Source: Scyliorhinus canicula
Lineage: Eukaryota
Assembly: GCF_902713615.1 (NCBI RefSeq)
Contig: NC_052158.1
Location: forward strand, 86,436,822-86,500,821
Reading direction: 5' to 3'
Length of the DNA: 64,000 bases
Below are positions 998-38,000 of the stretch, piece by piece. The position numbers were made by a program, and so were the translations under genes. Position 1 is the first letter of the stretch. Each line of letters begins with the position of its first letter. The notes under the pieces are model-generated. The model was not told the origin of the DNA and did not search any database. It saw nothing but the letters and a program-made list of their open reading frames with translations.

Positions 998-1870
998 TGT
1001 TGCTAGGTGTTGCTTTTACTTAATTGCTCTGTTTAATAACCTTTGCTCTCGAGTCGCCAGGTATCTTTCTGATACCATCACGAGGTTCAAAGCCAAGTGC
1101 TGATCAATAACTCAATACACCAGTTAGTAAGTTTCAAACTAAAACACATTTATTATACACAGTCAATCACTACTTATGCATAAACTATACTTATTAAACT
1201 AACACTGCTACTAAAGGCCTATACTTAGCTTTCGAATGGCCCACCAGGTCAGAGGAACAATGGCCTTTGTCCGGTTCTGAATCTGCTGGCTTAAAGTTGG
1301 TATGGAATAGTAGCTAGGAGCGTCTATCTCGTAGCGAGTGTTGACTGGAGACTTACTTGGTTGGTGGAGCTGCTAGACAGGTCTCTCCTTGTTGAGAGTC
1401 ACGGTCAAGAGTTCTTTGAGAGCTGCCAAGACATCCTGCAAAGAGAGCGAACTGAACTTGGGGACTCTACTTTATAGTCCCCAGGGGTTTTGCGCCCTTG
1501 TGGGCGGGCCCCGGACCTGGTCCTAATTAATTGGACCATGTCCCAATCGTTTCAATCGATTTCTCCAATACTGGAGCTGTTCCCTGATCGCTGGGCGGTT
1601 CCTATGTGTCCGTTGGCCTTCCTTTGTCCTGGCTCCCGCTGGCGCTGGGGAGTCTGTCTTGGTCCCGATCGCTTCAATGTATCAAATTGTTCCTGGGGAT
1701 TGCTCATTAATATGTAGATGGCTATTGGTTTCAGTTTTGTCTGGGCTCTGCAAGTCTTAATACACAGGAAACCTTGCACCTGCTTGTTTTCCTGTGCCTG
1801 GCCAATTTTCCCTGTATTCTTTGCGGGCCTCCATATTGGAATCGGGAAGTGGCCACCCAAGGTGGCTACA
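998..1870 (-). repeat. 3' LTR of element A
   Basis: Direct repeat of 6007-6879; on the minus strand a TATA-like CTATAAAG at ~1469-1476 and AATAAA at ~1149-1154. Confidence 0.93.
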
Positions 1871-2255: not shown

Positions 2256-2951
2256 TTACATCTCAAGGGGTTCGGGGGCCTGGTGGAAACCGTAAATAGG
2301 GGATCTCATCCTGTATACCGGGGTGCGAGAGCGGTAGGCTCTCCTTCGCCATTTCTTCATGCTAATATTCTGCACGATGCTTGCCAATCAGAGTATTGCC
2401 AATGCTAGAAGTGCTTCGACAACATACGACAATAAACTTATCACACCATGTCGGGGTACTGTTGGTTGTTACTGGGCTCTGTGTACTATGGGGGAGTGAA
2501 CCATTGACAGCCGGTGGGGTGGATGTGAGGGGTTCGCGTTCGCGCGCAACCAAATACACAAGTGTCCAACAAAGAAAGATGGAGGTCGTCTTGGGGCAGC
2601 AGGGTAGCACGGTGGTTAGCATAAATGCTTCACAGCTCCAGGGTCCCAGGTTCGATTCCCGGCTGGGTCACTGTCTGTGTGGAGTCTGCACGTCCTCCCC
2701 GTGTGCGTGGGTTTCCTCCGGGTGCTCCGGTTTCCTCCCACAGTCCAAAGATGTGCGGGTTAGGTGGATTGGCCATGCTAAATTGCCCGTAGTGTCCTAA
2801 TAAAAGTAAGGTTAAGGGGGGGGTTGTTGGGTTACGGGTATAGGGTGGATACGTGGGTTTGAGTAGGGTGATCATGGCTCGGCACAACATTGAGGGCCGA
2901 AGGGCCTGTTCTGTGCAGTACTGTTCTATGTTCTATGTTTTATGTCTTCAT
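2256..2951 (-). pseudogene. Small transmembrane-protein ORF of element A (disrupted by a SINE, one frameshift and one stop)
   Basis: Removing the SINE and one TSD copy gives MKTTSIFLCWTLVYLVAREREPLTSTPPAVNGSLPHSTQSPVTTNSTPTWCDKFI/LSYVVEALLALAIL*LASIVQNISMKKWRRRAYRSRTPVYRMRSPIYGFHQAPEPLEM*; homologous to 20741-21111. Confidence 0.75.
2593..2943 (+). mobile_element. HE1-like tRNA-derived SINE inserted in element A
   Basis: tRNA head with A/B boxes (GGTTCGATTCCC), HE1/V-SINE core, (TTCTATG)n tail, TSD GTCTT at 2588-2592 and 2944-2948. Confidence 0.92.
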
Positions 2952-3724
2952 CTTCTCTTGTCCTGGAGCTTCTGGAATTCTGTGGATACAAGCATAATAT
3001 CTGTTATTATCTTGCCTAAGATCTCGTGTGCTAGTCTGTCTGTCCTTTGGTGCCAATTACCCTTTATAATTGGTCACCATCTGTGACTCCCTCATTTTTT
3101 TTTTTAAACCCAATTTCAGGACCAGACATACATAAAAATACTGAAACAGTGCGAGCTGTCTCGCAGCCTGTGCGATTTGCCATCCAACTGTTTGAGGATG
3201 TAAATAACATGAGGGGAAGCAACCGAAGGGTTACCTTAAAACAAAACAAAAACTTTTGAAACAAAAGAGCCAAAATGAGGTACGTATGGGCCGCGGCAGG
3301 TAAGAATTGGATGGAATCCCAAGGTAGGGCGGATTGTGCTCTACCCGAGCTTAGCTGACCAGAGGGGGGTCCTCAGACAGGGCGGGGATAAGTGCCGTGT
3401 CTCCACTGCCTGAGTAACCGGCAAGAACGGGCAAGAATGTAGTCATCGTGGTGGGTTGCAGTAATGTCTCTACCTTCAAATCGGAAGAGCAGTTATGAAT
3501 TGGGTGCTGGCAAGTTCTCAGCGGTTTCGGCTGATAAGCATGCCGTCAAGTTCTCATAGGTTTCTGCAGACAAATTTGGCCTGGGGCTGTGTAAGGCTGT
3601 TTAAAATTCAAACAAAGAACATTTGACAAACACAAACAAACATGCAACGAATATCGTGCAGGTTCCATCAGAAAGAAGGATACTGTAAATCACATGTGGT
3701 TTGGGGTGTAACTACCATATGGAG

Positions 3725-5682
3725 TCAGTGCAGTGTGACCAATGAAGAGAGGAAGGAGGAGAGAAACAAAATGAATTGGCATTGCTGAGGTGTCCCTGCC
3801 ATGAAAAGTGGTGTGTAAGCGCTCACAGTTTGCATGGGGCAGCTGGGACCTTGTAGTTGCTGTGGGTGGGGTTCTCTTTCATATCTGGGGGCGGGTCTAG
3901 CTGGTGGTGGAGGTCTCCTGCAATCTCGGGCGAAGTTTCCTGGCTGCCCACAAGTGTAACATGACATGGGGGACATAAGGTGGAGCAGGCACTCTGGTGC
4001 ATTGTTCCCTTGGGTATTATTCCCTGAGTGGGGGGTTGGGGCTGTTGGTGTCGTTGCTGGTTCGGGGGGCATTGGTGGGCTGATTCCGTGGCTGTTTCAG
4101 GGGGGCTTGACAGTCTCGTGCGTAATGTCCTAATTGGCCGCAATTATAACACCCCTGGCATTTGGTCTGCTGTGGGCTGTTCCTTCCCTCATTTACCCAT
4201 GCGGGATTTTAATGTGTTTTAACTGGATGCATATCTGCATCTGCCTGCTCTTCATCGGGTTTCCTAAAATTGGTCTTGTGTACTGATTTCTCCCAAGCGC
4301 GGGACAATCTTTTTAAAACCCATTTCTCATTGTGGGCCTCATCTGAGGGGTCATAATTTGCACAAGCTCTCTGACCTGCCTCTGTGGCGTGAGAGATCAG
4401 GATTCGAGTCTATTTTGCCATGTTATCTGGGGACAAATGGGCGCGGGCTAATTCTCCAAAAACTGCCGTGAAAGTAATCCATAAGCGTCCAGCAAACACT
4501 GTGGGGTGTTCAGTTTTCTTCTGCCTGCATCTATTCAGGCCTGCTACTGGGTCTCTATTGTAACCGATCGCATCTAGGATCGCTGTGCGCATCTCTGCTA
4601 GGGTGCCTCCTCCTACATTCTGTGGGTTGGGAAGGGCTGCTACAACGGAAGGGTCTAGGCTCAAAACTGTGAGCTTCACTTGCTCTTTCTCATCCAGGCC
4701 ATACATGGTGACCTGCTGCTTAACTTTTGCAAAGAATTGGTGGGGGTCTGAAGTGGGGAGGAATGGTGTGATTTTCTCACACGCATCCCGTAATTGGGTT
4801 ACGGTTGCGGTGGGTGGTTATTGGATTCATGGGGGTGTGATCTATCTGCTCTGTGGGGGGTTGGGGTGCTCTTCTCTTCTGGGGCTTCTCCTGCGTACAT
4901 GCTCCATGTACATACTTATGCGTTGTTTCATTTAACTCTTGCCAATCGGGTCGTTATCATCATTTAATTGGGATCCAAATGTGCTTTGGAATCCATTCTG
5001 GACTGAAAGCAGAGATTGCAGTTCTGCAATCTGCTTCCGGCACTTTGCATGATTTACCGAGCTCTGCCTCTGTTCCGTGGTGGAAGCATGGAGTGTTCAT
5101 AGAGCTGCCTTTAAATCGCTGCACTGCTTCTGCAATGCCTCTACCTGCTGTTTCGTTTCTTGTCTTACCAGGACTGCACGTTGTGTGTCCTGGATAGGCC
5201 TGGTCATATTAGGTTTGGAAGCTGCTTAAGTGCGCCAGACAAGACTGGTGTGCCCTCTTGGCATCATCCAACTCTCTGTCTTTTGCTGCCAACCTCCCTT
5301 TTAACTCTCTGTTCTCCTTCTCTATGTTGCTTACATCGACTTTACTCATCCTATTTCTCTCATCTATCTCTTTACGGAGCGTCCTAACGACCTCCTCTGT
5401 GCCTCGCAATTGTGCCAGACAGGACACGATTGCCATCGGCTTGCGAGCTTTTCCCAAGCTCTTCCTGTGAATCTCTGTCAGGTTCTCCCACCAAGTATGT
5501 CCTATACTCCCGGGACCTGTTTCTTCATTTGCACAAAATTCGCTCTAAAGGGGCCATCCCTTCCCTTTGAGGTACTTCCTAATCTCATCTTCCCAAACGG
5601 GACACTGTCCTACTCTGCTGCTGGTCGCTGCTACCACGAATTCTTGCGGGTTCATAAGGCGTTCCATTGCCTTCATTGCCAT
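3725..5682 (-). pseudogene. gag: gag of element A (frameshifted)
   Basis: Begins MAMKAMERLMNP..QCPVWEDEIRKYLKGKGW; coiled-coil segment; capsid-like MYGLDEKEQVKL..PQNVGGGTL..RQKKTEHP; CCHC knuckle CYTCGQPGNFARDC near 3920-3962. Confidence 0.85.
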
Positions 5683-5978
5683 TTTTCCTATCTGAGTTCT
5701 CTTTAAATTCGGAACAGGGGGTAATAAAGCGGTGCTGCAAATACGGGTATGGCTTTCGCTAATTTCCAGAATACAAACTCCCGACAGTTTTTCGCAACAG
5801 AATCTATCAGTTTTACCTTATAGCCCTGTTAGTACGCATGCATTAACACACTTCCGAATTCTGGAGGATTGATCAGAACGGCTTGAACACTTGTGGTTAT
5901 TTCTGTTCTCAATTGGATTCTAATTCAAATTTTGGGTTCTCTCGGAGTTGAGGGGGGGGGGGGGGGGGCACTTCTAAG

Positions 5979-6002
5979 TCGAGTCCCGTCAAAGTTCACC
6001 AA
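5979..6002 (-). promoter_or_regulatory. Degenerate primer-binding site of element A (tRNA-Arg-like)
   Basis: TGGTGAACTTTGACGGGACTCGAC 4 nt after the 5' LTR; aligns with the PBS of element B. Confidence 0.6.
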
Positions 6003-6006
6003 TAAA

Positions 6007-6879
6007 TGTTGCTAGGTGTTGTTTTTACTTAATTGCTCTGTTTAATAATCTTTGCTCTAGAGTTGCCACTTATATTTCTGATACCACCACGAGGTTCAAA
6101 GCCAAGTGCTGATCAATAACACAATACACCAGTTAGTAAGTTTCAAACCAAAACACATTTATTATACACACAGTCAATCACTACTCATGCATAAACTATA
6201 CTTATTAAGCTAACACTGCTACTGAAGGCTTATACTTAGCTTTCAAATGGCCCACCAGGTCAGAGGAACAATGGCCTTTGTCCGGTTATGAATCTGCTGG
6301 CTTCAAGCTGGTATGGAATAGTAGCTAGGAGCGTCTATCTCGTAGCGTGCGTTGACTGGAGACTTACTTGGTTGGTGCAACTGCTAGGCAGATCCCTCCT
6401 TGTTGAGAGTCACGGTCAAGAGTTCTTTGAGAGCTGCCAAGAGATCCTGCCAAGAGTGCGAACTGAACTTGGGGACTCTACTTTATAGCCCCCAGGGGTT
6501 TCGCGCTTTTGTGGGCGGACCCCGGACCTGGTCCTAATTAATTGGACCATGTCCCAATCGTTTCAATCGATTTCTCCAATACTGGAGCTGTTCCCTGATC
6601 GCTGGGCGGTTCCTATGTGTCCATTGGCCTTCTTTGTCCTGGCTCCCGCTGGCGCCGGGGAGTCTGTCTTGGTCCCAATCGCTTCAATGTATCTAATTGT
6701 TCCTGGGGATTGCTCATTAATATGCAGATGGCTATTGGTTTCGGTTCTGTCTGGGCTCTGCAAGTCTTAATACACAGGAAACCTTGCACCTGCTGTTTTC
6801 CTGTGCCTGGCAAATTTTCCCTGTATTCTTTGCGGGCCTACATTTTGGAATCGGGAAGTGGCCACCCCAGGTGGCTACA
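6007..6879 (-). repeat. 5' LTR of element A
   Basis: Direct repeat of 998-1870, followed on the minus strand by the PBS and gag. Confidence 0.93.
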
Positions 6880-7324: not shown

Positions 7325-8170
7325 CTAATTATTGAGTCAGTGCAACATACTGATCAATAATGCAGGAGTCATAGCAATGCAATGGTGAGCTATTTTAAAG
7401 CGTAGGAAATCTGCTGCATGGATTAGGAAAGGGAGAAATTCACACAATTTCATTTAGACATTCCCCTCTCCACTTTGAACCATGGGGTTTTTTTGTGAAT
7501 CCTTAATATAGACTAGCAGATAGCGTCTTTGTGGCCAAAGGGCACTTTGGAAGAAAAATGTAACACTATAACCTATATACGGATAAAATCTGTGATTCTG
7601 TAGGTACAGAGACCCACTTACTGAAGGCGTAGAATAAACCCCATGCTGTTATTCAATGTATTAGATAACAACACATTATTTCATTAGGCATAAGAGCACA
7701 TAGGGTCCCCCAAAATGTCATTCTTGAAGTTGTTTATTTTTCACTGATTGTAAGATACATATAATTTTGCTACACAGGGACTTAACCTACTTCAGAGCTG
7801 CAAATGCTTCTGATCCTCTTTGGAAAAAACAAACTTCTAAATGACAATATGAGTGACTACTCTTGGTGCCCACACTAAGTTTTGAAACAGTGGGATACTG
7901 ACAAAAATGAAATAAAGTAACAGAATTATGTTGGGATCTGTTGAGGCTCACCCTACTACCATCCAGAATATTCACACCCTGTGAGCAACACCACTATTAT
8001 AAAATGAATGTAGCAACATCCCAGCATTGATAGAATCATGGCTTTTGAATGGTAACGACATCTCCCTCACTAAAGCTTCTGCATCTCTCTATAAATGTCT
8101 TCACTCGCCTTGTTGACGATGCAGTTCACTTCCTGACCTAAAGGAAAAGAAAAATTTGCATTTGTATAAA

Positions 8171-9786
8171 CCCCAGCAGCCCACAACTCACTCACACCCA
8201 CCATCACAGCTTCCAAAGTCAGATCGGTCTTCCTGAAAGTGAACCCTCGGAAGACGACGGGCCCGGACGGGATCCCTGGTCGTGCACACAGAGCCTGCAC
8301 GGACCAGCTGGCACAGGTGTTCGTGGACATCTTTAACCTGTCCCTACTCCACTCCGAGGTCCCCACCTGCTTCAAGAAGACCACCATCATACCGGTGCCA
8401 AAGAAGAACCAGGCAACGTGCCTCAATGACTACCGTCCGGTGGCCCTGACTTCAGTCCTAATGAAGTGCTTAGAGAGGTTGATCATGAAGCACATCACGT
8501 CCATACTCCCAGAACGCCTTGATCCATTGCAATTCGCATACTGTCGCAACCGGTCCACAGCAGATGCCACTTTCCTGGCCCTATACTCATCCCTCGAGCA
8601 TCTCGACAAGGACTCCTACATCAGACTCCTATTTATTGACTACAGCTCCGCCTTCAACACCATAATCCCAGCCAAGCTCATATCAAAGCTCCAAAACCTA
8701 GGACTTGGCTCCCCACTCTGCAACTGGATCCTCGATTTTCTGACCAACAGACCACAATCAGTAAGAATGAACAACAACACCTCCTCCACAATAGTCCTCG
8801 ATACCGTGGCCCCGCAAGGCTGTGTACTTAGCCCCCTACTCTACTCCCTGTACACACACGACTGCGTGGCAAAACTTGGTTCCAACTCCATCTACAAGTT
8901 TGCTGACGATACGACCATAGTGGGATCTCTAATAACGACGAGACAGAATACAGGAGGGAGATAGAGAACCTAGTGGAGTGGTGCAGCAACAATAATCTCT
9001 CCCTCAATGCCAGCAAAACTAAAGAGCTGGTCATTGACTTCAAGGAGCAAAGTACTGTACACACCTCTGTCAGCATCAACAGTGCCGAGGTGGAGATGGT
9101 TAGCAGTTTCAAATTCCTAGGGGTGCACATCTCCAAAAATCTGTCCTGGCCCACCCATGTCAACACTATCACCAAGAAAGCACAACAGCACCTATACTTC
9201 CTCAGGAAACTAAGGAAATTCGGCATGTCCACATTAATTCTTATCAATTTTTACAGATGCACCATAGAAAGCATCTTATCTGGCTGCATCACGGCCTGGG
9301 ATGGCAAATGCTCGGCCCAGGACCGCAAGAAACTTCAGAGAGTCGTGAACTCCGCCCAGTCCATCACATGACCCTGCCTCCCATCCATTGACTCCATCTA
9401 CACCTCCCGCTGCCTGGGGAAAGCAGGCAGCATAATCGAAGATCCCTCCCACCTGGCTTGCTCACTGTTCCAACTTCTTCTATTGGGCAGGAGATACAGA
9501 AGTCTGAGAACACGCACAAACAGACTCAAAAACAGCTTCTTCCCCGCTGTTACCAGACTCTTAAATGACCCAGATATGGACTGACCTCATTAACACTACA
9601 CCTTGTATGCTTGATCTGATGCTGGTGCTTATGTAGTTACACTGTATACCTTGTGTTGCCCTATTATGTATTTTCTTTTATTCCCTTTTCTTTCCATGTA
9701 CTTAATGCTCTGTTGAGCTGCTCGCAGAAAACTCCTTTTCACTGTACCTCGGGACACGTGACAATAAACAAATCCAATCCAATCCA
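8171..9786 (+). mobile_element. 5'-truncated Rex1/Babar-type LINE (RT, frameshifted)
   Basis: ORFs 8239-8964 and 8973-9371 with [50 protein letters not shown]; AATAAA and (AATCC)n tail. Confidence 0.9.
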
Positions 9787-11955: not shown

Positions 11956-12783
11956 AGGCAGGAGAGGAAAGTTGGAAAACATTCCAGAAGCAAAGACTGG
12001 ATGATTAAAAAATGATGACAGAAACTAATTTAATCTGTTTATTTTAATGGCTTTAATTACATTTCTGCTTGGTAGTGCTCCCCAACTCATTCCTTATCCT
12101 GTAAGTGCACAGGTGATATATTTCGGTCAACTACAAATTACTTAATGAATTTGCAACAACGATGTCAGCGTCATTGATCTCTCTTTCTAATTTATAGTTA
12201 CCAAATCATGCAATGACCAGCAGAGAGAGAATAAATTGAAGCACAGCAATGCCATCAACTCAACAGTATATGTTCACATAGGGCTTGCTCATAGCTCATA
12301 ATTTCATTTTGGAGGAAAACTATTGATCACTCAAGGTTTGCATTTTGATTAATGACAGCACTTAAAATCCAAAAGGTGATCACTGCTTTGTAATTGCTTC
12401 AAATCTGGTATTGAATTTGCACACAAACATTCAAACTGGTAAAAGGCCAGTTTAGATGCTTTTATAAAGTGCCCTTAATGTAGCAAAACCATTTCAAAGT
12501 ACTTCACAGGGAGCATAAGCCAGAGAAAAATGCACATCAGCCCAGTCGCGTTGTTAACTCTGGTTAGAGAAATTCCTGGAGGTCTGATCATATATCAGCA
12601 AATATTATTGCATTTACCTGTAATACCTGCAGTTGAGAGAACATTTGCCAATAGATTAATGTTGGGAAGTTCCAAAAACTGAGAATTTTGAGTACCTGAA
12701 AGTTGATTCAATCCTAACTTTTAAAAGGGATTGGATGTATTCATGAATGTGAAAAAAATTCAAAGGCCACGGTGAAAGAAGAG

Positions 12784-13544
12784 TGTAGTCATCTAAGATG
12801 GCCACCTGCAAAGGACCATGGGAATTATGGCCAACCCAGGACTCGGACAGATACAGAGCCGATATGTATCTGAAACACAAGTAACCAGGCCTGATCGAAA
12901 CCCCCGCTCGTTTGCATTTTAATGGTCCATTTTCCCAGGACAATAGAACTCAAATCAAGCAACCGGCACAGAGACAGACTGATTGGCACCATTCCCTTTA
13001 CTCAGAAAGCCCAACTGCCAATGACCGCTAAGGACCTGCGAGACACCAAGGCACTCACCTCTTTATTGGCCGAAATCGGACAGTGATCAGAGCCCTGTCA
13101 AACTGTTGGGTCCAAGGTAAAGGACCGCCCCAACGAGCGCAAAATCCCAGAGGGACAAAAGAGAGCACAGCCATGTGTTCTGTCTCTTTTGGATCCGGCC
13201 TGTGCCAGCCCAATTGCAGCAGGGACAGCCAGCCAGGTTCAAGACCAATGATCGCTACCTGATGGATGAGCAAAGCAGAGACAGAGCCACTTTCTTCGAA
13301 CCAGCCAAGTGAAATCCAGATAAAGGCCTTATCCATTTGCACAGTGCTGGTCACCCTGAAGTTAAGTATAGGTTATTGTAGCTGATAGGTGTAGTTTAAC
13401 TCATAGTAGACATTGTGGTTGCATGTTGAGATAACTCTTGTGTATGTGAATAAACCATCTTTTGAACTAACTAACTGGTTGTTTGGTCATTTGATTGATA
13501 TAAGGGAAGGCTTGTGGTTCACCAACATTATTAATAGAGCAACA
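12784..13544 (+). repeat. 5' LTR of element B
   Basis: Direct repeat of 21475-22237; AATAAA near 13449. Confidence 0.93.
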
Positions 13545-13548
13545 TTAT

Positions 13549-13566
13549 TGGCGACTCTGGTGGGAC
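13549..13566 (+). promoter_or_regulatory. Primer-binding site, tRNA-Arg(UCU)
   Basis: TGGCGACTCTGGTGGGAC is the reverse complement of GTCCCACCAGAGTCG-CCA, the 3' end of vertebrate tRNA-Arg(TCT) as I recall it. Confidence 0.85.
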
Positions 13567-13853
13567 TTGATTAGAAGTGACCTTATCACTCCAAGAGACC
13601 CCACAAACTTTGAATCCAATTGCGAGAAAGAGAAAGAAGCACAAGTCCCATATCGACCAAATAACCGAATTTTGGAAGTATGAACTAACCCCGCATGCGT
13701 ACCTAATAGGAAGGGTAAGGTAAACTTGTTAGAATTCTGTACAACTATCGAGGGGTTGTGAGTCAGAAAATAGCTTAAGCCATACCCATTGTTCAAATCG
13801 CCGCCTTATTCCCTTGTCCCAAATTAAAAGTAGAGAAAGAGATAAGAGAAGTA

Positions 13854-15592
13854 ATGGCCACTAAACAATGGAAAGATTGATGAATGCACGGGAACCCAAG
13901 GTCGCAGCGACCAACAGAGCAGAGCAATACCCCATATGGGAGGAAGAGTTAAGGAAATACTTAAAGGGGAAAGGATGGCTCCTTCGGTTGAATTTTCGCG
14001 CTAATGAGTCAGGTCCAGGAAAGATAGGACAGACTTGGTGGGAGAACCTAAGCGAGGTCCACAAGAAAAATGTAGGGAAAGTCAGAAAGACGATAGTGTC
14101 CTGGTTGGACAGTTGCAAGGCACAGAGGAGGTCGTGAAGATGCTCCGTAGGCAGTTAATTGAGAAGGAAGAAAAGAATGAGGGAAACAGTAACAAAAGTG
14201 AGAAAATAATTGAGCAACTCCGGGAACAGTTAGCAGCTAAGGATAAGGAAATAGCCGATGTAAAATGCGCACATCTATCTTGTCTAGTTCACATTAGAAG
14301 CTTCCAGACCCAGAACGATAAAGGCTACCAAGATACACAGTGTGCAGTCCTGCTAAGAGAGGAAACAGAACAACAGGTCGCCAAGCTAACTAGGAAATGC
14401 GCAGATTTAAAAGCAGCTTTGAGATCGCTCCACGGCTCCATTAAGGAACAGAGACAGAATACCGTTGACCATGGTAAATGCCGATAGAAGATAGAAAAGT
14501 TACAGTCATTACTCAGTGCAGAATGGCTTCAGGTACACTTTCGGGCAGGATTTAGACGAGGAAGATGCTCCCGATTGGCAAGAGTTAAACAAAAGCTCCC
14601 AAAGATACGTAGAGGACACGGGAAATCAAAATTGAGCCCCCCACGCCCCAAAAAGAAAAGCACCTGCAGCACTGACTGCACAGGCAGCACACACCCCCCT
14701 TACAATTCAATCCCCATGAATTCGGTTACCACACAACGCACGTCATCAGATCAAGAGGAGCCTGATATCATTTACACCACCCCACTATCCATAACCCAAT
14801 TAAGAGAGGCTTGCACGAAAATTGGTCCATTCCAGTCCACCGCAGACCCGCACAGCTTCTTTGAGGAGATGCGTCAACAGAAAGTTATGTATGGCCTAGA
14901 TTAGAGAGAGGAAGTAAAGCTAATAGTTATGAGCCTTAGCCAGTCTGTAGGGTCAGCTTTGCCAGAACCCCAAAATGTAGCAGGGGGAACCCTACAAGAC
15001 ATGAAAACAGCCATATTAGATGTCATTGGGTATAACAAAGGAGATCCAGTCAAGGGTTTAAATCACTGTAGGCAAAAGAAGGGGGAACATCCGACCACAT
15101 TTGCTGGTCTAGGGATTAATTTCATGGCAGTCTACGGACAATTGAACTGCGCACACCTAAATGAGGACACCACTAAATGGTCCCGCACCTCAGTCTCACA
15201 TGCCACAGACACAGGTCAAAAGGCTTGTGTAAACTACTACCCCACAGACCACAGACACAATGAAGTTTGGGCATTGAAACAATGTTCCAAAGCATGGGAA
15301 CAAACCCTAGACCAACAAACAGATCAGGACAAGATAGAAGCACCCAGTTAGGATTAGCCAGGACCCAGCATGGATAAATGAGGGTAGACACGAGGGACAG
15401 CACCCCAGAGCACAGGCACCATGAGGTTGTTAGAATTGTGGCCACATGGGACATTTACGCCCGCGATTGCCGACAAACCCCCCGAACCATCAACGATACC
15501 AACAACCGAACCCCCCACCCAGGAACATTGTTAGGCCCATGCATAATGTTCGCACCTGTTCCGACGACTTAGCATTTAATTCCCTAGATTGA
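13854..15592 (+). pseudogene. gag: gag of element B (frameshifted)
   Basis: ORF pieces 13868-14137, 14035-14487, 14575-14904, 14929-15351 align with element A gag; decayed knuckle C*NCGHMGH/ARDC near 15425-15470; ends in TGA-CGG. Confidence 0.85.
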
Positions 15593-18500
15593 CGGTGTTT
15601 GACTCCCCAACTTGGGTCTGTGACACACGCTGGGACAAATTAGGAAGACCAGTAGTTACAGGCACAGTCCAGATACACACAGTCGATTTTCTTTGGGACA
15701 AAGGAGGATCCCACACCACTTTAAACTCCTCCACCACGTTTCAACAGGACAAATGGCCCACCACAGACACCAACACCCTGAGTGGATTCAAGGGCACATA
15801 CAGCAAGGATATATCACAGCTCCCATACCATTCAGATAGGGATGATTAGAACCAAACACGCTGTTGTTTTAGTTGACTTACCCCAAACCACAGAGCACAT
15901 TTTAGGCATTGATTTTATGAGCTCCCATAACATTTCATTTGACCCAGTAAACAAATGTGTATCGCGAATGGCCAAAACAGCTAGGGCACCCGCTACGCTC
16001 ACAGTAGGGGATTATTAAAACAGGATTTGTTCAGTAGGGGACTATTGGTTTAATCCGCAAACAATTAGCGCAGACTAGACAATTAAAGAGGTCCTCATAA
16101 AACACAAAGCGTCCTGCGCACAACACAAAACACGACTGTGGGAAAATCCCAGGTGCAGTAAAGATTTCAGGTCCTGATCCAAAGCCGCAAAAGCAATACG
16201 GTTTCCCACAGCAAGCCGAGGGTGAGATTTCAATGGTTATTAATGGTTTGTTAGACCAAGGAGTTATACGACCTGTAGTGTCCACAAATAATGCCCCAAT
16301 TTGGCCCGTAAAAAAGCCCGATGGTTCATGGCGACTAACGATTGACTACCGAGAACTTAATAAGGTAACCCTGTTAGCAGCCCCCACTGTTGCCATGAGT
16401 CCAGAGACCATGCTCAAACAGGGAGTACAGGCAAAACATTTCACATTGCTGGACATCAGCAATGGCTTTTGGTCCATCCCGTTAGACAGGGCCTGCCAGT
16501 ATAAATTCGCATTTACGTTTCAAGGGCAGCAGGTCACGTGGACATGCCTCCCACAAGGATTCCATAACTCCCCTTCCATTTTCCACTGACAGTTGGCCAG
16601 AGGACTTTCTAAATTTTCCCGACCTGAATGCCTCATACAATATGTAGACGATCTGCTCTTGCAAACGGACACAAAAGAGGAACACCTAGAGCTCTTATCT
16701 GAATTACTAGGCCTACTGCGATCAATCGGACATCAGGTAAACCCCCAAAAGGCCCAGAATTTGAAGGAAAAGGTTCTTTATTTAGGCTATCATCACCCAC
16801 GGGAAGAGAGAAATTGAGCAAAAACAGATCGAGTCCATCGTTAAATTGCCCCAGCCCCAAAATGTCACTGCACTCCGGTCATTCCTAGGTTTGGTAGGAT
16901 ATTGCACAAATCATATAGATGGCTTTGCCACTAAAGCAGCCCCACTCTCAGAGCTCCTTAAAAAGAGCGCCCCATGGTTAATGGCTTCTGCAGTACACAG
17001 ACGCCATTGATGATTTAAAATGCGCTCTAGGCACAGCCCTGCTTTACAAGTTCCAGACCCAGGCTTGCCCTATACCATAGAAGTAGCAACCACCGACCGA
17101 ACCCTATCAGCAATACTCCTGCAAGAACAACACGATCACTTAGGACCCGTAGCCTTGCCTCAAGAGTATGAGACCCCGTACAGCAAGGATTCTCAGCCTG
17201 CAAACGGCACTTGCTTGCAGTACAGTACTTTGCGTACATCACAGGCCTCAACCTAGTAACGATCTTGACTGAGCACACCCCATGCAACTATTACTAGACG
17301 GTACATTAAAGGATGGTTCAGTCAGCCAAATCAGAGCAGCTCGCTGGACACTACTGTTACAAGGGACCCCACGAGTGCCAAATCATATGCAGGGACCCCA
17401 CATGAGTGCCAAATCATAGCAGCCCAACACCACGCAGGACCCTTTATCCCAAAATTACTACACCCATGAGCAGGCAATAAGACACAGGATTTCCAAACCA
17501 CAGGGAATGCTTTAAAAATGAGACGGTTCCTCCACAATCAAAAATGGAGTTAGAATTACTGGTTGTGAAATTTACGTGGAAAACACGCAGGGACGCCCAC
17601 TAGAAGAGATCTCTTTAAAATTGCCCGGCCACCTAGGTTCACAAGCAGCAGAACTCGCAGCCATAGCCTATGTAATTCAGCATCCCGACTCTTTTCCAAC
17701 TCCCACAGACATACACTCAGACAGCCTGTATGTGTGCAATAGTTTAACAGAATTTCTGCCCCTGTGGGAATCTCTTGGTTTTGTTTCAGCCGATGGAAAA
17801 CCCCTACCCTCTGCCCCGTTGTTAAAGGACATTCTCAAGAAAGCCTCAGACTGCACATACGGTATTATTAAAGTAAGAAGCCATCATTGCTCCTCCCCAC
17901 CTGGTAATGTAAAGGCAGAAGCCTTAGCCAAAGCAAGATCACGCCATGGTCACTTCTAGCAGCCACCCGAAAGCCAACCGATACAGGTTTCCCAGACCAA
18001 TATTGAGGATCTATCCCAAGCCCAAAAAGCAGACGACACCTTCAAACAGGTTTTAGACGGCAACTTCCCAGCCCCCTATGATAAATGGAAGGACGCACTG
18101 GCTGAACAGGATGACATAGTTTTAAAAAACGAAATTTATGTGGTCCCCACCCAGGACAGATACCAGCTCATTTACCAATTTCATAATGGACACTGACATC
18201 AGGGGACAGACAATACCATTGCCCATTTAAGACCATTGTGTTGGTGGCCTGATTTAAAAAGCAATGTAACCCATTATGTCGAGAATTGCCTTATCTGTGC
18301 TCAGAAACAATCCTGAACATTACTCAAAGAAAAGGGCAATTACGTCACACCCAACATGTGAATGGCGCTTGGACAAAATTTCCAAATCGATTACATTGGC
18401 CCCCTTGCCCCTTGCAGATATGGTTTCAAGTATGTGCTGGCTGTAATCAGCACCTTTACTAAATGGGTAAAAGCATTTCCCTCACGGACAAACACAGCAA

Positions 18501-19200
18501 AGGTCACTGCTGAGATTTTGACCCAACAGATATTCACACTCTGGGGTCTCCCCCACAGCATTGAGTCAGACCAAGGCTCCCAGTTCACCGGCAGAGTCAT
18601 GCAAAATGATTTAACAATTTTTGGGATCGGGCAGAAATTCCATATAGCATATCACCCCCAAACCAGCGGCATTGTTGAGAGAATGAATCGAACTTTAAAA
18701 GCGACCATTAGGAAGATGGTGCAACAGAACAATACCATGTGGGGCATGGTCTTCCCATTTGTTCTCATGTTTATTCGGAACACCCTTTCCAGTTCAACAG
18801 TTTTCACCCCCACGCTCTCATGACTGGATGGCCCATGAACGGTATTGAATATTTATTTGGCCTCGATTTGGCAAGCCCTACAGTAACCGTCCTCTCCCAC
18901 GAAAAAGCATCCAAAAGGTTACAGATGACATTAAAGTGGCACAACTCGCTGCAGCTGTCTGATTACGTTCTCGAAGGAAGCAGAGTAAAGAATGCTTTGA
19001 CAAAGCCATCCACCCCGTAGAGCACACAGTTGGTCAGCAAGTAATGGTTTCCCTTTACAATCCCAGTTCTTTCCTCTCCCCCAAACTTGCACGACCCTAC
19101 TTCATTTCAGATAAAGTGAGCCCCTCCGTGTACAAGATAATGTACCCCAACGGTAAAACTGGTTTGTTCCACATCAACCAACTCTAAGTCCATGGATCAT
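15593..19200 (+). pseudogene. pol: pro-pol of element B (protease, RT, tether, RNase H, integrase)
   Basis: FLWDKGGS (protease); QKQY..NNAPIWPVKKPDGSWRLTIDYRELNK, LDISNGFW, LPQGFHNSP, YVDDLL (RT); SQAAELAA..SDSLYV..KVRSH..GNVKAEALA (RNase H); FQIDYIGP, SDQG, VERMNRTLK (integrase DDE). Confidence 0.93.
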
Positions 19201-20740
19201 AATGTAGCCACTCCCACCACATCTCTCTGGCAATAAGAGATGATTACTCCCCGCCCATCAACAACCTAGTCCAACCCCTATGCCAACCCTCCCCCAGCCA
19301 TGCAGGCATTTATCCCTTGTCCATGCCCACAGACCCGAACTTGGCTCCACCCACAGGTACAGACTTTCACCTTGAACTTGACTCAGACGACAGCGAGAGC
19401 CTCATGGATTTGATTACTATCCCTGACCACTGGCGCGATCTCTCTGCCCCCAGTCACCCCAGCCCTCAGAACCACAACTTCGATATCTTTGACTCTCTAT
19501 ATGCCCTCCCCCAGCCACCGCCTGACCACAGTAACTTGCCCTCCACTCCCACCACCCCAACGCCTCACAACAAACAAGCCCCTCTTTGGCACCGCGACAA
19601 CTCTTGCAGACTAGTAAGGCACGGCGATTCGGATTATCCGACAGCCCACGCGGCCGAGGCACAGAAACAGCAGAAATTAGTCTGGCAATCGTGAGATGGT
19701 GGTGATTCAGATACTGACGCTCGTTTTGGTTAATGCTGTTACAACACTGTTTGGTACAGAACCCTGAGGTGTCCAGATGATGAGAAAGAGACACCGCCTA
19801 AGTATTAATGTGTCCTAGTTCTGATGGAGCCTGCCCGCCTTTTTCTTTTTTTTTCTACAACATGGTTTTAAGTCATGTCGCCCGACACACAGTTACTCTT
19901 CTGATTCGAGGGTAAGATACCCAATGTCAGTTAAAGGCACAATGTTGTGGGGAAACAGATCACTGTTCTCTCAGTCTTTATGACACATTTCCACACAACT
20001 ACAAACTCTTACCGTCCACCCAGGTAGGAAGTAACGGCACTGATCCCCACCCTACCCGAGGACTCCAAATGCATCCGGTCAGTTAAGCTCGGGTAGTGGA
20101 GTAACGGCACTATGCCCCGCCCTACCTGAGGATTCCACCCATTCTTATCCTGTAGCGGCCCACATGCACCTCATGTTCCCTTCACTTCATATGCTCTCGA
20201 ATTGTTCTCTACACTCTGCGTTGTATTTGGCAGGCCTTAGTTTCACCTTCTCAACTCTCCCTTTGGTTGTGGTATAAAGAATGCATTTTGCCACGGTTTG
20301 CACGCACATCCCTTCTTTCCTTTACCTTCCGCGACTCCCTGGTCGGTACCCACCTGCTATTTACACGTACGACAATTGGTTGTTACACACGCTGCTAAAC
20401 GCAAACTACCTCTGAACCCTGGGATGGAACTCTATAAAACTGGCAGCCCTGAAATCCGACTGGTTAAGATGAGCCTCAACCACCACTGGTTGCAAGTAAA
20501 GAAAAGACTGGTCGAAGAAATTGTCATACCACTCCCGCACCGACCACAAGCTGCGAGAGTTTCTGCACTTTAAAAATTTGCATTTCTTGTCTCTCAAAAT
20601 GGTATTTCAAAAAAAAATTTTTTAAATGAGGGAGTCACACATGGTGACAATCATAATGGGTAATTGGAGTAAGGACAGAAAGACTAATAAAACGAGATAT
20701 TAACCAAAGATAATAACAGATACTATGCTTGCATCCCCAG

Positions 20741-21111
20741 GATCACCTGGAAAACAGAAAACACAGGGTGAAGCAAGGACTGCTGACATGCGTTTGGATC
20801 ATTGCTGGAGTTCTGCAACTATGCACGCAACGGACCGTTATAACAAACCCCACACCAGCCCCGAACACTACCACACAACAGGCCACCACCAGCCCAGACA
20901 CTACACCACACAAAGACAGATATCGAAACCCCCACTTGGTGCGAAAGCATTGCCAAATGGAACCCCCTTTCATACAGAGTAGAGGCCCTTCTAGTAAGTG
21001 CAATAATCTGCAGTGTCATTCAGACACCGACTCCGTAAATGGCAAGCAAAAGCCTCCCGCTCCCCGACATATAAAGTCCGATTTCCCTTCTTTGGAATTC
21101 AACAAAATTAA
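20741..21111 (+). pseudogene. Small transmembrane-protein ORF of element B (two frameshifts)
   Basis: DHLENRKHRVKQGLLTCVWIIAGVLQLCTQRTVITNPTPAPNTTTQQATTSPDTTPH/KTDIETPTWCESIAKWNPLSYRVEALLVSAIICSVIQT/RLRKWQAKASRSPTYKVRFPFFGIQQN*; follows a splice acceptor at 20740. Confidence 0.75.
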
Positions 21112-21474
21112 ACTCATGTACCAATAGCGGCTAAAAATAAACCATGTACATCTTTAATTTTTGCTGCTGTTGTAAATTTTGTACTGTATATAAGTTCTTT
21201 GATATTCACCAGCAGCACGAGAGTAGCTCAGATAGTGTTAGCCAGAGATCCACTGTGTGGATAAATTAAATGTTTTATAGAGACCTGATTATAGTAACCG
21301 TTAGAGATGAATTGATTTATGGATGTTTTAATGGAATATTAGGTAAATGTCCCAAACCAGAAGATAGAGTAGAGTAGAACCTTGCCTTGACCAAAATTGA
21401 CCGAGCCACCAAGGATGAACAGGGATCGATAGTGTGATCCACCACGCTTTGCGTTCAGGATCAAAAGGACGGAA

Positions 21475-22237
21475 TGTAGCCATCTAAGATAGTCACCTGC
21501 AAAGGACCTTGGGAATTATGGCCAACCCAGGACTCAGATAGATACAGAGCTGATGTGTATCTGAGACACAGATAACCAGGCCTGATCAAAATCCCCGCTC
21601 GTTTGCATTTTAATGGCCCATTATCCAAGGACAATAGAACGCCAATCAAGCAATCAGCACAGCGACAGACTGATCGGCGCCACTTTTTTTACTCAGAAAG
21701 CCCAACTGCCAATGACCGCTAAGGACCTGCGAGACACCAAGGCACTCACCTCTTTATTGGCTGAAATCGAAGACAGTGATCAGAGCCCTGTCGAACTATT
21801 GAGTCCAAGGTTAAGGACCACTCCAAAGAGTGCAAAATCCCAGAGGGATAAAAGAGAGCACAGCCATGTGTTCTGTCTCTTTTGGATCCGGCCTGTGCCA
21901 ACCCAATTGCAGCAGGGACAGCCAGCCAGGTTCAAGACCAATGATCGCAACCTCACGGATGAGCCCAGCAGAGACAGAGCCATTTTCTTCAAACCAGCCA
22001 AGTGAAATCCAGATAAACGCCTTATCCATTTGCACAGTGCCGGTCACCCTGAAGTTAAGTATAGGTTATTGTAGCTGATAGGTGTAGCTTAACTTGAAGT
22101 AAACATTGTGTTTGCATGTTGAGATAACTCTTGTGTATGTAAATAAACCATCTTTTGAACTAACTAACTGGTTGTTTGGTAATTTGATCGATATAAGGGA
22201 AGGCTTGTGGTTCACCAACATTATTAATAGAGCAACA
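21475..22237 (+). repeat. 3' LTR of element B
   Basis: Direct repeat of 12784-13544, preceded by a purine-rich tract. Confidence 0.93.
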
Positions 22238-23581: not shown

Positions 23582-24373
23582 TGTTGCTCTTTTTAACTGG
23601 ATACAGATATGACAGTTATTAATGATGAGATTGCTTTTCAGAGTCGCCAGGTATCAAATGATACCCCCACAAGGTTTTACCGGATATCGATCAAAGACCA
23701 AACCAGTTAGTTAGTTCCAGTTCAATGATAGTTTATTTGCATTCAAGAATTACTTGGACATGCAACATAAAACACTACAAGCTAAATTACACCTAACACA
23801 CAACAACCTGTACTTAACTTAAGGCACCCGGCTTTATGCAGAGGAACAAGGCCTTTGTTCGGATCTTGAATGGCTGGGTCTGGAGAAGTGACTTCGTTCC
23901 TGCTGGGCTCATCCGTCTGGTAGCGATCGTTGGTCTTGAACTTGTCTTCTGGTCGTGATGCTAAACTTGGTTTTAGGCATAGGTCTGGGCCAAGAGAGAC
24001 CGAGCGCCGGGGCCAAGAGAGACTGAACACATGCCAGTGTCTCCCTTTATCCTTCCTGGGTTTTGCGCTCTTTTGGGCAGTCCTTAGCTTTGGACCCAAT
24101 AATTCAGCAGGCTTCAATTACTGCCTTCGATTTTGGCCAATAAAGGGGCGGGTGGCTTGATGGCGGGGCGTGTCCTGAACGGTCATTGACCTTAGCTTTT
24201 TGGGCTCCCTGAGCAAAGGTAGTGGCACCGATGAGTGTTTCTGTATCTGTTACCCGAGTACAGGTCTTTTGTTCTGGGGAAATGAGTCCTGGGTTGACCA
24301 TATTTCCCATGGACCTTTGCAGGTGGCCATATTTCCTGGGATCCTTTGTAAGTGGCCATCCCTGATGGCTACA
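23582..24373 (-). mobile_element. Solo LTR of a third member of the A/B family
   Basis: TGTTGCTC...GATGGCTACA ends; clear similarity to the element B LTR (GCCACCTGCAAAGG..CCATGGGAA, TTCAAGACCAA.GATCGC); perfect 4-bp TSD GTTA. Confidence 0.9.
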
Positions 24374-24941
24374 GTTATTGGAAAATTTAAAGTAAAAGCT
24401 CTTCCAGAGCAGGTCATCCATGCTCAACTCTGGGAGATTCCCAGGCAATTTGGGAGCATTGGCAACGCACAGACCCAAAATAGGAAATATTACAAAGGAT
24501 GACAAGAAGTTAGGTCCAAGGCGTGGACTTTACAGAGGGTCATCAAGGAGGAAAGAGGAGTAGAGTGAAACATTGATTTAGAGAGGAAATTCCAGATTGC
24601 AGGGCCTAGACAGCTGAACACAGCCACCAACAAAAGGGAGTCAGGGGATAAATGAGACTAGAATCAGATGTAATGCAGAATTGTGGGTTGTTGTTAGATT
24701 GGAACAGTTGGCAGAGTTAAGCTGAGGACATGAAGGGATTTAAACAGGGTGTCAATCACACAAAGTATGATCAATCATTGTAGTGGAGATCCAGGTTAAG
24801 TAATAAAGGAGATACATTTGAAGCCATTTTAAAGAACAGCCAGATGTTGGACTGGGGAATCTGTCTGTCAGGTTTCCTAATTGAGTGAGTTAAGTTGGAC
24901 AGAATGACTTTACTTGTCCATCTTTTGCTTGTGAATCTCAT

Positions 24942-35027: not shown

Positions 35028-38000
35028 TGTGGTGATCCACTGTGTTAACTGTGTGCACCTGTATTAGGGGATGTACAGTAGGACCTACACTACAGGTTCG
35101 CCGGTAGCCCCTGCCGGCTAGCTCCGCCCACAAGGAGCCATATAAATAGGTATGACTCTTCCTGATCAGCCATTTCGCCAGCTGCAGTAGGAGGCCACGC
35201 ATCTGACTGTAATAAATCCACAGTTGTACCAATCTGAGTCTTTCGTGCAATTGATAGTGCATCAATTTATTACAGTCAGATTTTCCACATTAAGGACATC
35301 AGGATCAAACCCGATCGCCTGCAGCTGGATCCACACTCGCCAGACGCCAGAAAGGACTTTATTCACTGGCTGGCTTGCTTTGAGGCCTATATCAATGCTG
35401 CGACCCCCGCTCCGACGGAAGCTCAGAAGATCCAAGTGCTTTACTCCAGATTGAGCTCCAGCGAGTTCCCGCTAATCCAGGACGCCCCGAATTACGCAGA
35501 GGCTATGGCTCTCCTTAAAGAGAACTACGTTCAGAAGACGAACACACTCTTTGCTAAGCACGTTCTCGCCACTCGCGTACAACTACCTGGTGAGTCGATC
35601 GAAGACTTCTGGCGGGCTCTTATCCCACTCGTACGGGACTGGGACTGTCAGGCCGTCACGGCCATGGAACATTCCAATCTCCTCATGCGAGACACATTCG
35701 TGACGGGGATTGCATCGGACCCCATCCAACAATGACTGCTGGAAGGGGCCACGCTCAACCTAGTGGAGACAAAAGCTTTAGCGCTCTCCATGATGGTCGC
35801 ATCTCGCAACGTCCAATCCTACCACGCTCGCCGCGCGGCCCACCCCTCCTACTCCTCTTGGACCCCGCAAATGACCCCCCCGGCAGGGGCCACTCCTGCT
35901 CAATATGCCTGCGCCGTCCGCCACACCATGCACCCTGGGGGTCCCCGCTGTTACTTCTGCGGCCAGCGGAAGCACCCCCGCCAGCACTGCCCAGCCCATG
36001 CCGCCACTTAGTGGTAAGAAGTGCTACTTTGCGGCAGTGTGCCAGGCACACGCAGTCGCCGCTATCGCGCCCGAATTCACTCACTTCCCCCAGCCGATCG
36101 CACAATGGACGCCGCCATCCTCTGCTCCCGGGGCCACGTGCGACCAGTGGGCGCCGCCATCTTCTACCCCCAGGTCCACGTGCGGCCCATGGGCGCCACC
36201 ATCTTGCCACGCCCCCACAAAGTGCACTCCATGGGCACCGCCATTTTGCCCCGCGCCCGCAATGTGCACTCAGTGGACGCCGCCATCTTTCTCTGCCCCT
36301 ACAACGTGCGCTGCGTGGGCGCCGCCATCTTCTCCTCCACAGGTCCTCCGGATGCCGCCATCGCCACTATTTGGTCTTCCCCACGGGACTGGAACGCTGG
36401 ATCCGGGTCGCCGACGCTCCACATCTGAATCCTCGGACGACCACCCGCTGCTTGTCTCTATGACACTGGACCAGTTCCGTCCTCACAACCTGGCCACCGG
36501 GAAATCAACGGCCACGCGACCTCTTGCCTACTGGACTCCGGGAGCACCGAAAGCTTCATCCACCCGGACACGGTAAGGCGCTGCTCCCTCACGGTCCACC
36601 CCGCCAACCAACGTATCTCCCTGGCCTCCGGATCACACTCTGTCCCGATCCGAGGGTTCTGTGTGGTCAATCTCACTATCCAAGGCATGGAATTCAGCAG
36701 TTTTCGCCTCTACGTTCTCCCCAACCTCTGTGCTGCACTATTGCTGGGTCTAGATTTTCAGTGTAATCTCCAGAGTCTCACCCTCAAATTTGGTGGGCCC
36801 CTACCCCCACCAACCGTTTGCGGCCTCACGACCCTCAAGGTTGGCCCCCCTACTTCTTTGCCAATCTAACTGCGGACTGCAATCCCGTTGCCACCAGGAG
36901 CAGACGGTACAGCCCCAGAGCAAGGCCTTCATCAGGTCCGAAGTCCGGCGGCTGTTTCAGGTGGTTATAATCGAGGCCAGCAATAGCCCCTGGAGAGCCC
37001 AAGTGGTAGTGGTTAAAACTGGGGAGGAACACAGGATGGTCGTGAACTACAGCCAGACCATCAATCAGTACACGCAGCTCAGCGCATACCCCCTCCCTCG
37101 CATATCTGATATGGTCAATCAGATTGCACAGTACCGGGTCTTCTCAACGATCGACTTTAAATCCGCCTACCACCAGCTCCGCATCCGTAAATCGGACCGT
37201 CCATACACTGCCTTCGAGGCGGACGGTCGCCAGCGCACAAGTAGACCAACTCCGGGCCCTGCATGACAGCCTTTGTCACCCGTGGGGTCACTCGATTATA
37301 CCACCTCGTCAAAGCCTGCAATCTGCCCTACTGCATCGAGGAAGTACGGACAGTCACCAGAGACTGCCAGGTCTGTGCGGAGTGCAAGCCGCACTTCTAC
37401 CGGCCGGACCGTGCATGCCTGGTGAAAGCCTCCCGCCCTTTTGAATGCCTCAGCTTGGATTTCAAAGGGCCCCTCCCCTCCACTGACCGCAACACATATA
37501 TCCTCAGTGTGGTCGATGAATTCTCCAGGTTCCCCTTTGCTATCCCATGCCCCGATATGACGTCCGCCACCATCATCAAGGCCCTCAACTCCAGCTTCGC
37601 TCTGTTCGGTTTCCCCAACTACATCCACAGCGACTGGGGATCCTCATTCATGAGCGATGAGCTGCGTCAGTTCCTGCTCAGCAAGGATATCGCCTCCAGC
37701 AGAATGATCAGCTACAACCCCCGGGGAAACGGGCAGGTAGAGAGGAGAACGGGACGGTTTGGAGGGCCGTCCAGCTGGCCCTACGGTCCAGAAACCTCCC
37801 AGCCGCTTGCTGGCAGCAGGTCCTCCCGGATGCACTGCACTCCATCCAGTCTCTACTGTGCACCACCACAAATAACACACCATGAAAGTGTTTTACCTTC
37901 CCTAGGAAGTCCACATCCGGGGTGTCGCTCCCGACTTGGCTGGCAGCTCCAGGACCGGTTCTTCTACGTAGGCATGTACGACTCCACAAGTCGGACCCCT

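Follow-up and report, generated by a model that had tools for sequence, protein, structure and literature searches.

Snakehead retrovirus reportedly has a leader-encoded peptide exon, that is an ATG-led segment standing before a donor upstream of gag. Several other described systems are comparable with the element considered here. Spliced 3'ORF mRNAs of snakehead retrovirus are described in passages that leave a leader peptide unmentioned (PMC12193657). In foamy viruses the major splice donor lies in R and is used to suppress 5' polyadenylation (PMC3694450), and their Gag is described as having no Cys-His knuckle (PMC5210030). Lokiretroviruses and Odin are organised as LTR-gag-pol, with protease, RT, a tether plus a second RNase H, and integrase (PMC7947760, PMC9040795), and the Loki integrase has been placed beside CGIN1 (PMC7947760). 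Lokiretroviruses have an env resembling a Mononegavirales fusion glycoprotein, and cartilaginous fish do not appear in their host list (PMC7947760); Odin is cnidarian and has no third gene (PMC7947760, PMC9040795). The ERVs of the elephant shark were defined by having env (PMC4422223). MDG1 elements can also be env-less; their transcripts showed no splicing, and some lepidopteran sORF2 genes, encoding short membrane proteins comparable with reovirus FAST, lie downstream of pol (PMC11952523). No paper describing the shark element was found in open-access literature text, Repbase being outside the scope of this search.

The window analysed here is a stretch of 64,000 nucleotides of Scyliorhinus canicula (contig NC_052158.1), and it holds two decayed copies, A on the minus strand and B on the plus strand, of a large env-less retrovirus-like LTR family. 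Element A lies between its 5' LTR (6007..6879, minus strand) and its 3' LTR (998..1870, minus strand), which are identical at 827 of 871 aligned bases; its gag (4095..5682, minus strand) is broken and most of its pol is deleted, other copies having about 4 kb more at that place. The 5' LTR of element B (12781..13544, plus strand) is identical at 707 of 764 positions to its own 3' LTR (21472..22237, plus strand), and the broken gag and pol between them (13854..19700, plus strand) retain pieces of RT, RNase H and integrase. Between the two elements broken LINE-type reverse transcriptase frames are found (8170-9600), and beyond B there is a solo LTR-like stretch (23780-24530, minus strand) about 72% similar to the LTR of B and in inverted orientation.

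Copies of A and B were sampled in the genome from 2209 and 1071 first-look candidates, respectively, with the best 40 scored and 30 loci used for each; the counts reported here therefore describe the copies most similar to the query, and copies within one lineage are not independent. A young family (L173-L192, genome G000) was located by a search with a database RT relative, and two further lineages, D and E, were reached through database proteins. Fourteen of the 20 loci fetched for the young family have LTR pairs that are 98.5-99.7% identical. In its copies a single stop separates gag from pol without a change of frame, an arrangement suggesting stop readthrough (in L173 the stop is TGA and the next codon CGG). 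Pol frames measure 1404-1419 codons, the family is transcribed along its length in the RNA runs, and 13 of the 20 loci have an undamaged 3' ORF that opens with an ATG of its own.

Protease, RT, a Ty3-like tether (RT_RNaseH_2/RT_RNaseH) plus a second RNase_H, and integrase are joined in one Pol, and the dual RNase H of Lokiretroviruses (tether plus acquired RH) is thus found also in the shark element. This Pol lies at roughly the same distance from the foamy, MLV and Ty3 structures, the best solved-structure match of an RT fragment being foamy, and its nearest relatives in the databases are frog, coelacanth and turtle proteins, several of them named NYNRIN-like. The pattern of best matches and the automatic names may point to a Loki-clade RT and a CGIN1-like integrase. 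The dual RNase H, the distances of Pol and its database relatives fit the Loki/Odin neighbourhood (PMC7947760, PMC9040795, PMC8922424, PMC12440569). The element also shares with both groups the organisation given above; it differs from Lokiretroviruses in its cartilaginous host and in its lack of env, and from Odin in its host and in having a third gene. The Loki env being absent, we call it only Loki-like and do not file it as a Loki member.

No env-sized ORF was found, and no ORF above about 150 codons lies from pol to the 3' LTR in the 20 young copies; the roughly 1.6 kb of this region hold only a membrane-protein ORF of about 115 aa. The small proteins are 114-116 aa long with 34-49% identity between families, and dN/dS is about 0.2-0.4 in those pairs with finite, non-extreme dS: the ORF is under purifying selection. 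In order, the protein has a hydrophobic N-terminus beginning with MK or MME (a predicted signal peptide), an S/T/P-rich stretch with N-glycosylation sequons, the conserved motif TWC..W.S.SY, a membrane segment, a basic patch and the tail Y..[RQ]SP.F. The hydropathy peak is at 61-72 and a K/R run, the predicted juxtamembrane basic patch, follows it; from this hydropathy profile a type I membrane protein is predicted. The AlphaFold model is of low confidence (pLDDT 58, with helices at 3-20 and 38-89). Word-index protein searches found no relatives, the Atlas returned only generic single-pass matches below 0.9, and Pfam gave nothing above cut-off and no match to PF00523. A profile built from five natural small ORFs had six matches among 1.84 billion representatives, and relatives were found only in catshark records; the sixth match (P0024) was discarded as a repeat artefact.

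Like the sORF2 and FAST proteins (PMC11952523), the product of the shark ORF is predicted to be short and single-pass, with a basic patch after the membrane segment. It differs from them in that their MG myristoylation start is replaced by a hydrophobic N-terminus, a predicted signal, and in having an S/T/P-rich ectodomain with N-glycosylation sequons and a probably spliced mRNA (PMC11952523). No sequence similarity between the shark ORF and sORF2 or FAST was found.

The first-pass annotation of this DNA had proposed that a leader mini-ORF is spliced in frame onto this small ORF, and the leader and acceptor motifs on which it relied are indeed present in both A and B at the positions it gave. 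The leader block of A (5817..5841, minus strand), with the arrangement GCATG-CGT-ACTAAC-AGG, contains the ATG at 5839 and is followed by a putative donor-like site AAG/GTAAAA (5811..5819, minus strand). At the other end are a branch-point-like TAATAAC and the acceptor AG at 2981-2980 (2980..3010, minus strand), a purine-rich spacer (2952..2979, minus strand) and the small ORF with its own ATG at 2951 (2256..2951, minus strand). From the ATG to the GT at 5816-5815 there are 23 nt, from the AG to the ATG at 2951 there are 28 nt, and the sum is divisible by 3. In B the leader block (13684..13725, plus strand) has ACTAAC at 13684, GCATG at 13693 and the ATG at 13695, with a stop at codon 4, a donor-like GT at 13720 and a second one at 13715; its branch-point-like motif, acceptor AG (20739-20740) and 27-nt spacer occupy 20710..20767 (plus strand). 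Leader and acceptor blocks are common to A, B and four further lineages (C1, C2, D and E), C1 being the main branch of the young family and C2 a sublineage of it.

The in-frame join is correct for window copy A but it is not a trait of the family. Among 33 other non-redundant A copies, five are in frame (one of them with a stop), while 18 and 10 fall in the two other phases; 16 of the 49 stretches collected were dropped from this count (10 without acceptor, two without a start within 125 nt, four duplicates). Five of 33 is below one third, so the number of in-frame sums in A is no more than chance. The A leaders themselves are regular, with the ATG in 28 of 30 loci, GTAAA at +23 in 25 of 30 and, when read without splicing, a frame that ends at codon 9 in 28 of 30. 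The spacer of A is a variable GAGAA repeat, 30-110 nt long in other copies, and slippage of this repeat after insertion could have scrambled the phase, so that A alone is not decisive; B is. The annotation had removed one extra base from the B leader of the window to obtain the join and had asked whether the family consensus lacks it: the codon-4 stop is instead the state of the family, present in all 29 leaders scored (one of the 30 loci was not matched by the pattern), and B leaders are thus out of frame family-wide, an outcome that the annotation itself had named as refuting its proposal.

The codon-4 stop is also present in nine of ten true D leaders, the tenth being A-type and without the GT, and in all five true E leaders; one spurious pattern match was dropped from each set. 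C1 keeps the leader block, with GA in place of GT at +23 in 17 of 17. In C2 all 29 copies scored have the GT at +23, and 23 of them are in frame, two of these containing a stop; this sublineage is the best evidence for a fused leader peptide and the one lineage of six that supports fusion. Loss of the leader frame arose at least twice, because the base that breaks the frame in B differs from that in D and E, and the lineages with a broken frame kept multiplying. From this analysis it is evident that the nucleotide block is conserved across six lineages and the leader reading frame is not. A leader-encoded peptide fused in frame fails in B, C1, D and E and in the greater part of A, and it works arithmetically only in C2 and a few A copies; we are highly confident that the leader peptide is not required. 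The five leader codons common to A and C show no silent change even though A and C have almost reached saturation at the silent sites of the 3' ORF (pS 0.62-0.71), and because of this we consider that it is the nucleotides, and not the peptide, that are conserved.

The acceptor end is more constant. The branch-like motif and the AG align across A, B and C and are also found in D and E, the AG is present in 32 of 33 other A copies, and the spacer of B measures 27 nt in 27 of 30. An ATG of its own opens the small ORF in 30 of 33 A copies and 28 of 30 B copies, with a purine at -3, and also in the intact C copies; the leader ATG has a pyrimidine at -3 in all A and B copies scored. Dependence of the 3' ORF on a leader start, as in snakehead retrovirus, is accordingly not observed in A, B or C. 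In the window copy of B the ORF (20768..21115, plus strand) is broken, with GTG at the start position and a frameshift downstream; the proposal that a leader start had made this GTG tolerable does not hold, since the GTG is private to the window copy. Nor is the peptide MKTTSIFL... quoted for A contiguous in the window: a SINE of about 350 nt (2593..2943, minus strand) breaks the ORF three codons past its ATG, and a second break follows further on.

Five of the six profile matches are Scyliorhinus database sequences, all of them annotation models, with unrelated N-termini; none of the five has the leader peptide as its N-terminus. For two models mapping into genome G000, identity with the genome begins at the predicted AG. 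An EP3-receptor isoform model and a HEPACAM2-like isoform model run from host sequence into the first post-acceptor residues, and in the EP3-receptor isoform and one other model these residues are A-type and in frame 0. We consider it very probable that the acceptor is functional. The suggestion of a subgenomic spliced mRNA for the small ORF is hence supported at its acceptor end, by six lineages and by the database models, but its leader-peptide exon is not. The catshark EP3-receptor and HEPACAM2-like isoform models (P0023, P0025, P0022) end in the acceptor exon of the element, a possible exonisation altering the C-termini of host proteins; with its acceptor picked up by host gene models, the family may remodel the ends of host transcripts.

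The ATG of the leader is the core of a GCATG that always stands next to an ACTAAY, which precedes it in B and follows it in A, C, D and E. The same pair recurs around the polyadenylation signal of the LTR in A, B, C1 and C2, with GCATG 25-28 nt before and ACTAAY 17-26 nt after AATAAA. In the LTR of A these are TGCATG at 6191-6186, AATAAA at 6163-6158 and ACTAAC at 6137-6132 (6132..6191, minus strand); in the 5' LTR of B, TGCATG at 13420, AATAAA at 13449 and ACTAAC at 13466 (plus strand). GCATG and ACTAAY are each present in 25 of 30 A copies, in 21 and 24 of 30 B copies, in 18 of 18 of the C1 set and in 26 of 29 C2 copies, and their order and spacing are fixed in the four lineages examined. 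In the LTR the GCATG is not a start codon. UGCAUG is the motif of RBFOX and ACUAAY that of QKI (10.1101/2021.11.03.467086), and from the motifs we infer that such proteins may bind the element. We also considered a micro-exon (an AG after TACTAAC, 9-10 nt, then GT) and rejected it, since only B has a branch-like motif near enough to be used.

A second putative donor-like site, CAA/GTAAGT (6362..6370, minus strand), lies in the R region of A and is a rival 5' partner for splicing. It is about 120 nt past a TATA-like box, upstream of the polyA signal and with no ATG between the box and the GTAAGT. The GTAAGT is present in 28 of 29 A copies, in 20 of 20 of the C1 set and in 25 of 27 C2 copies; in B the R-region site is weak, only CAA/GTGAAA (13309). 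If used, this strong candidate donor, which precedes the polyA signal of the LTR in A, C1 and C2, would resemble the arrangement of foamy viruses; the shark element differs from them in the weak R site of B, in its single stop followed by pol in the same frame and in the CCHC knuckle of its Gag (zf-CCHC, E 1.8e-07). With snakehead retrovirus it has in common a short segment that begins with ATG and precedes a putative donor ahead of gag, as well as the acceptor before a 3' gene. It differs in that conservation does not extend to the frame of the fusion, and in that the 3' gene brings an ATG and a predicted signal segment of its own.

That the family is transcribed is plain from RNA reads. On B, 4010 reads from four RNA runs were placed (1 to 34 in 100 of each run was covered), and on C1, 12,571 raw reads and 4984 contigs. 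No joint from leader or LTR to the acceptor was present among the 8 joints listed on B, nor among the 15 listed of 24 on C1, the runs being partly read in both cases. On B likely-sense depth goes up in the acceptor bin in three bulk runs, with the leader bin near zero; within the window the bin 20611-21190 shows a rise of about tenfold in likely-sense depth in X21 and X22, without a listed joint to the element's own leader. No depth step is seen at the C1 acceptor in the placed reads. About 110 likely-sense reads pass the C1 leader site unspliced, most of them with the GT form (84 of 95 in X19 and 13 of 15 in X21). One contig of run X5 traverses the leader motif region of L179 (1113-1145) a second time, which may reflect a copy in which the leader block is duplicated in tandem. 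A stretch of about 400 nt from pol to the acceptor (window 3060-3450, minus strand; L173 7500-7900) is conserved as DNA with frames that differ between A and C; it has the highest C1 read depth and adjoins an A-tract, and it is possibly a cis-acting RNA element, or its depth possibly stems from internal priming at the A-tract. An open stretch of about 100-117 codons between pol and acceptor was rejected as a gene, since its frame changes between families.

Taken together, the explanation that we regard as probably correct is that the small gene is translated from its own ATG on a spliced mRNA and that the leader ATG is the core of an RNA motif, not a peptide exon. A 5' donor, either the leader site or the better-matching R-region GTAAGT, would be joined to the acceptor and yield a subgenomic mRNA; ribosomes would skip the weak leader ATG, or not encounter it at all, and initiate at the ATG of the 3' ORF to make what would be a membrane protein of type I. 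Proteins of the RBFOX and QKI/SF1 types would recognise the GCATG/ACTAAY pair and, once bound, could help to set how much RNA is spliced and polyadenylated and how much stays full-length. The occurrence of this pair both at the polyA signal and at the leader donor offers a concrete, testable model of RNA-processing control. Against this explanation stand the frame of C2, the joints listed on B and C1, none of which connects either donor to the acceptor, the missing depth step at the C1 acceptor, the unspliced GT-form reads at the leader site and the weak R-region site of B. In window copy A the in-frame join is most readily seen as fortuitous, a matter of how long the spacer happens to be.

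It is instead possible, though unlikely, that the leader ATG opens an in-frame exon extending the membrane protein in C2 and a few A copies and lost elsewhere, which is the earlier model in a weakened form. C2 as counted above speaks for it, as do the leader ATG itself, which 28 of 30 A copies and 29 of 29 B copies possess, and the spacer phase, which matches the leader in 10 of 17 of the C1 set and in all 20 D copies (phase 1); in E phases 0, 1 and 2 occur in 14, 2 and 4 of 20. The spacer gives a weak pN/pS signal in the leader frame (0.27-0.61), with 0.15-0.61 in frame 2 and only about a dozen changes in all. The join is however prevented in B, C1, D and E and in the majority of A copies, several C2 copies have an out-of-frame spacer variant in common, and the spacers of C2 and D, equal in length, are internally frame-shifted relative to each other. 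The start context is also weak (in A, T at -3 and C at +4, the unspliced frame being an 8-codon uORF), and no junction was among the joints listed on B and C1. No other in-frame ATG was seen upstream of either B donor on reading the sequence. Given the frame of C2 and the spacer phase of C1 and D, fusion of a leader peptide could be an ancestral feature or an optional one.

Other retroviral leaders carry a site for genome dimerisation immediately ahead of the donor, and here the ATG lies in the middle of an octamer that is complementary to itself (UGCAUGCG in A and C, where the ends pair as G-U, and CGCAUGCG in B). That dimerisation accounts for the conserved block is somewhat less probable still. 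The octamer is the strongest 12-mer self-dimer between primer-binding site and gag in A and B, and the difference between the two keeps the pairing; yet another site ranks first in C, 49, 37 and 56 of 100 shuffles attain the best self-dimer energy, and both the ACTAAY and the second motif pair at the polyA signal are left unexplained. We judge least probable of all that the leader ATG serves as a short regulatory uORF damping gag translation on unspliced RNA, its presence selected and its length free: all six lineages do have, upstream of gag, an ATG that is followed by a stop within 3 to 10 codons, but its context is weak, the flanking nucleotides are kept beyond what a uORF needs and the same GCATG recurs in the LTR.

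A leader peptide, as originally claimed, would have added only a second case of a leader-peptide exon, and it fails as a family trait. Of greater weight is what is left: a high-copy vertebrate retroelement lineage near the retroviral root, some of whose young copies are intact, and which lacks env and has, in that place, a small membrane protein under selection. The lineage is relevant to the question of how retroelements acquire env genes, lose them or exchange them for others. By analogy with insects one may go farther and conjecture, as a doubtful reading, that in a Loki-like branch of the catshark env was replaced by a spliced, RBFOX/QKI-controlled, glycosylated membrane protein of 115 residues for envelope-independent passage from cell to cell, which would be the vertebrate counterpart of insect sORF2; in this equally doubtful form the branch would be huge and still recently active.

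Some minor observations concern the composition of the elements and of the window. Primer-binding sites (5975-6000, minus strand, and 13549-13570 in the window; also L173 and L179) are of at least two types that cut across A, B and C, and locus L263 has an A-type leader paired with a D-type 3' end; mixed primer-binding sites and this chimera are signs of recombination. At 36091-36373 the window contains six tandem 42-nt GC-rich repeats with GCCGCCATCTT-like motifs.
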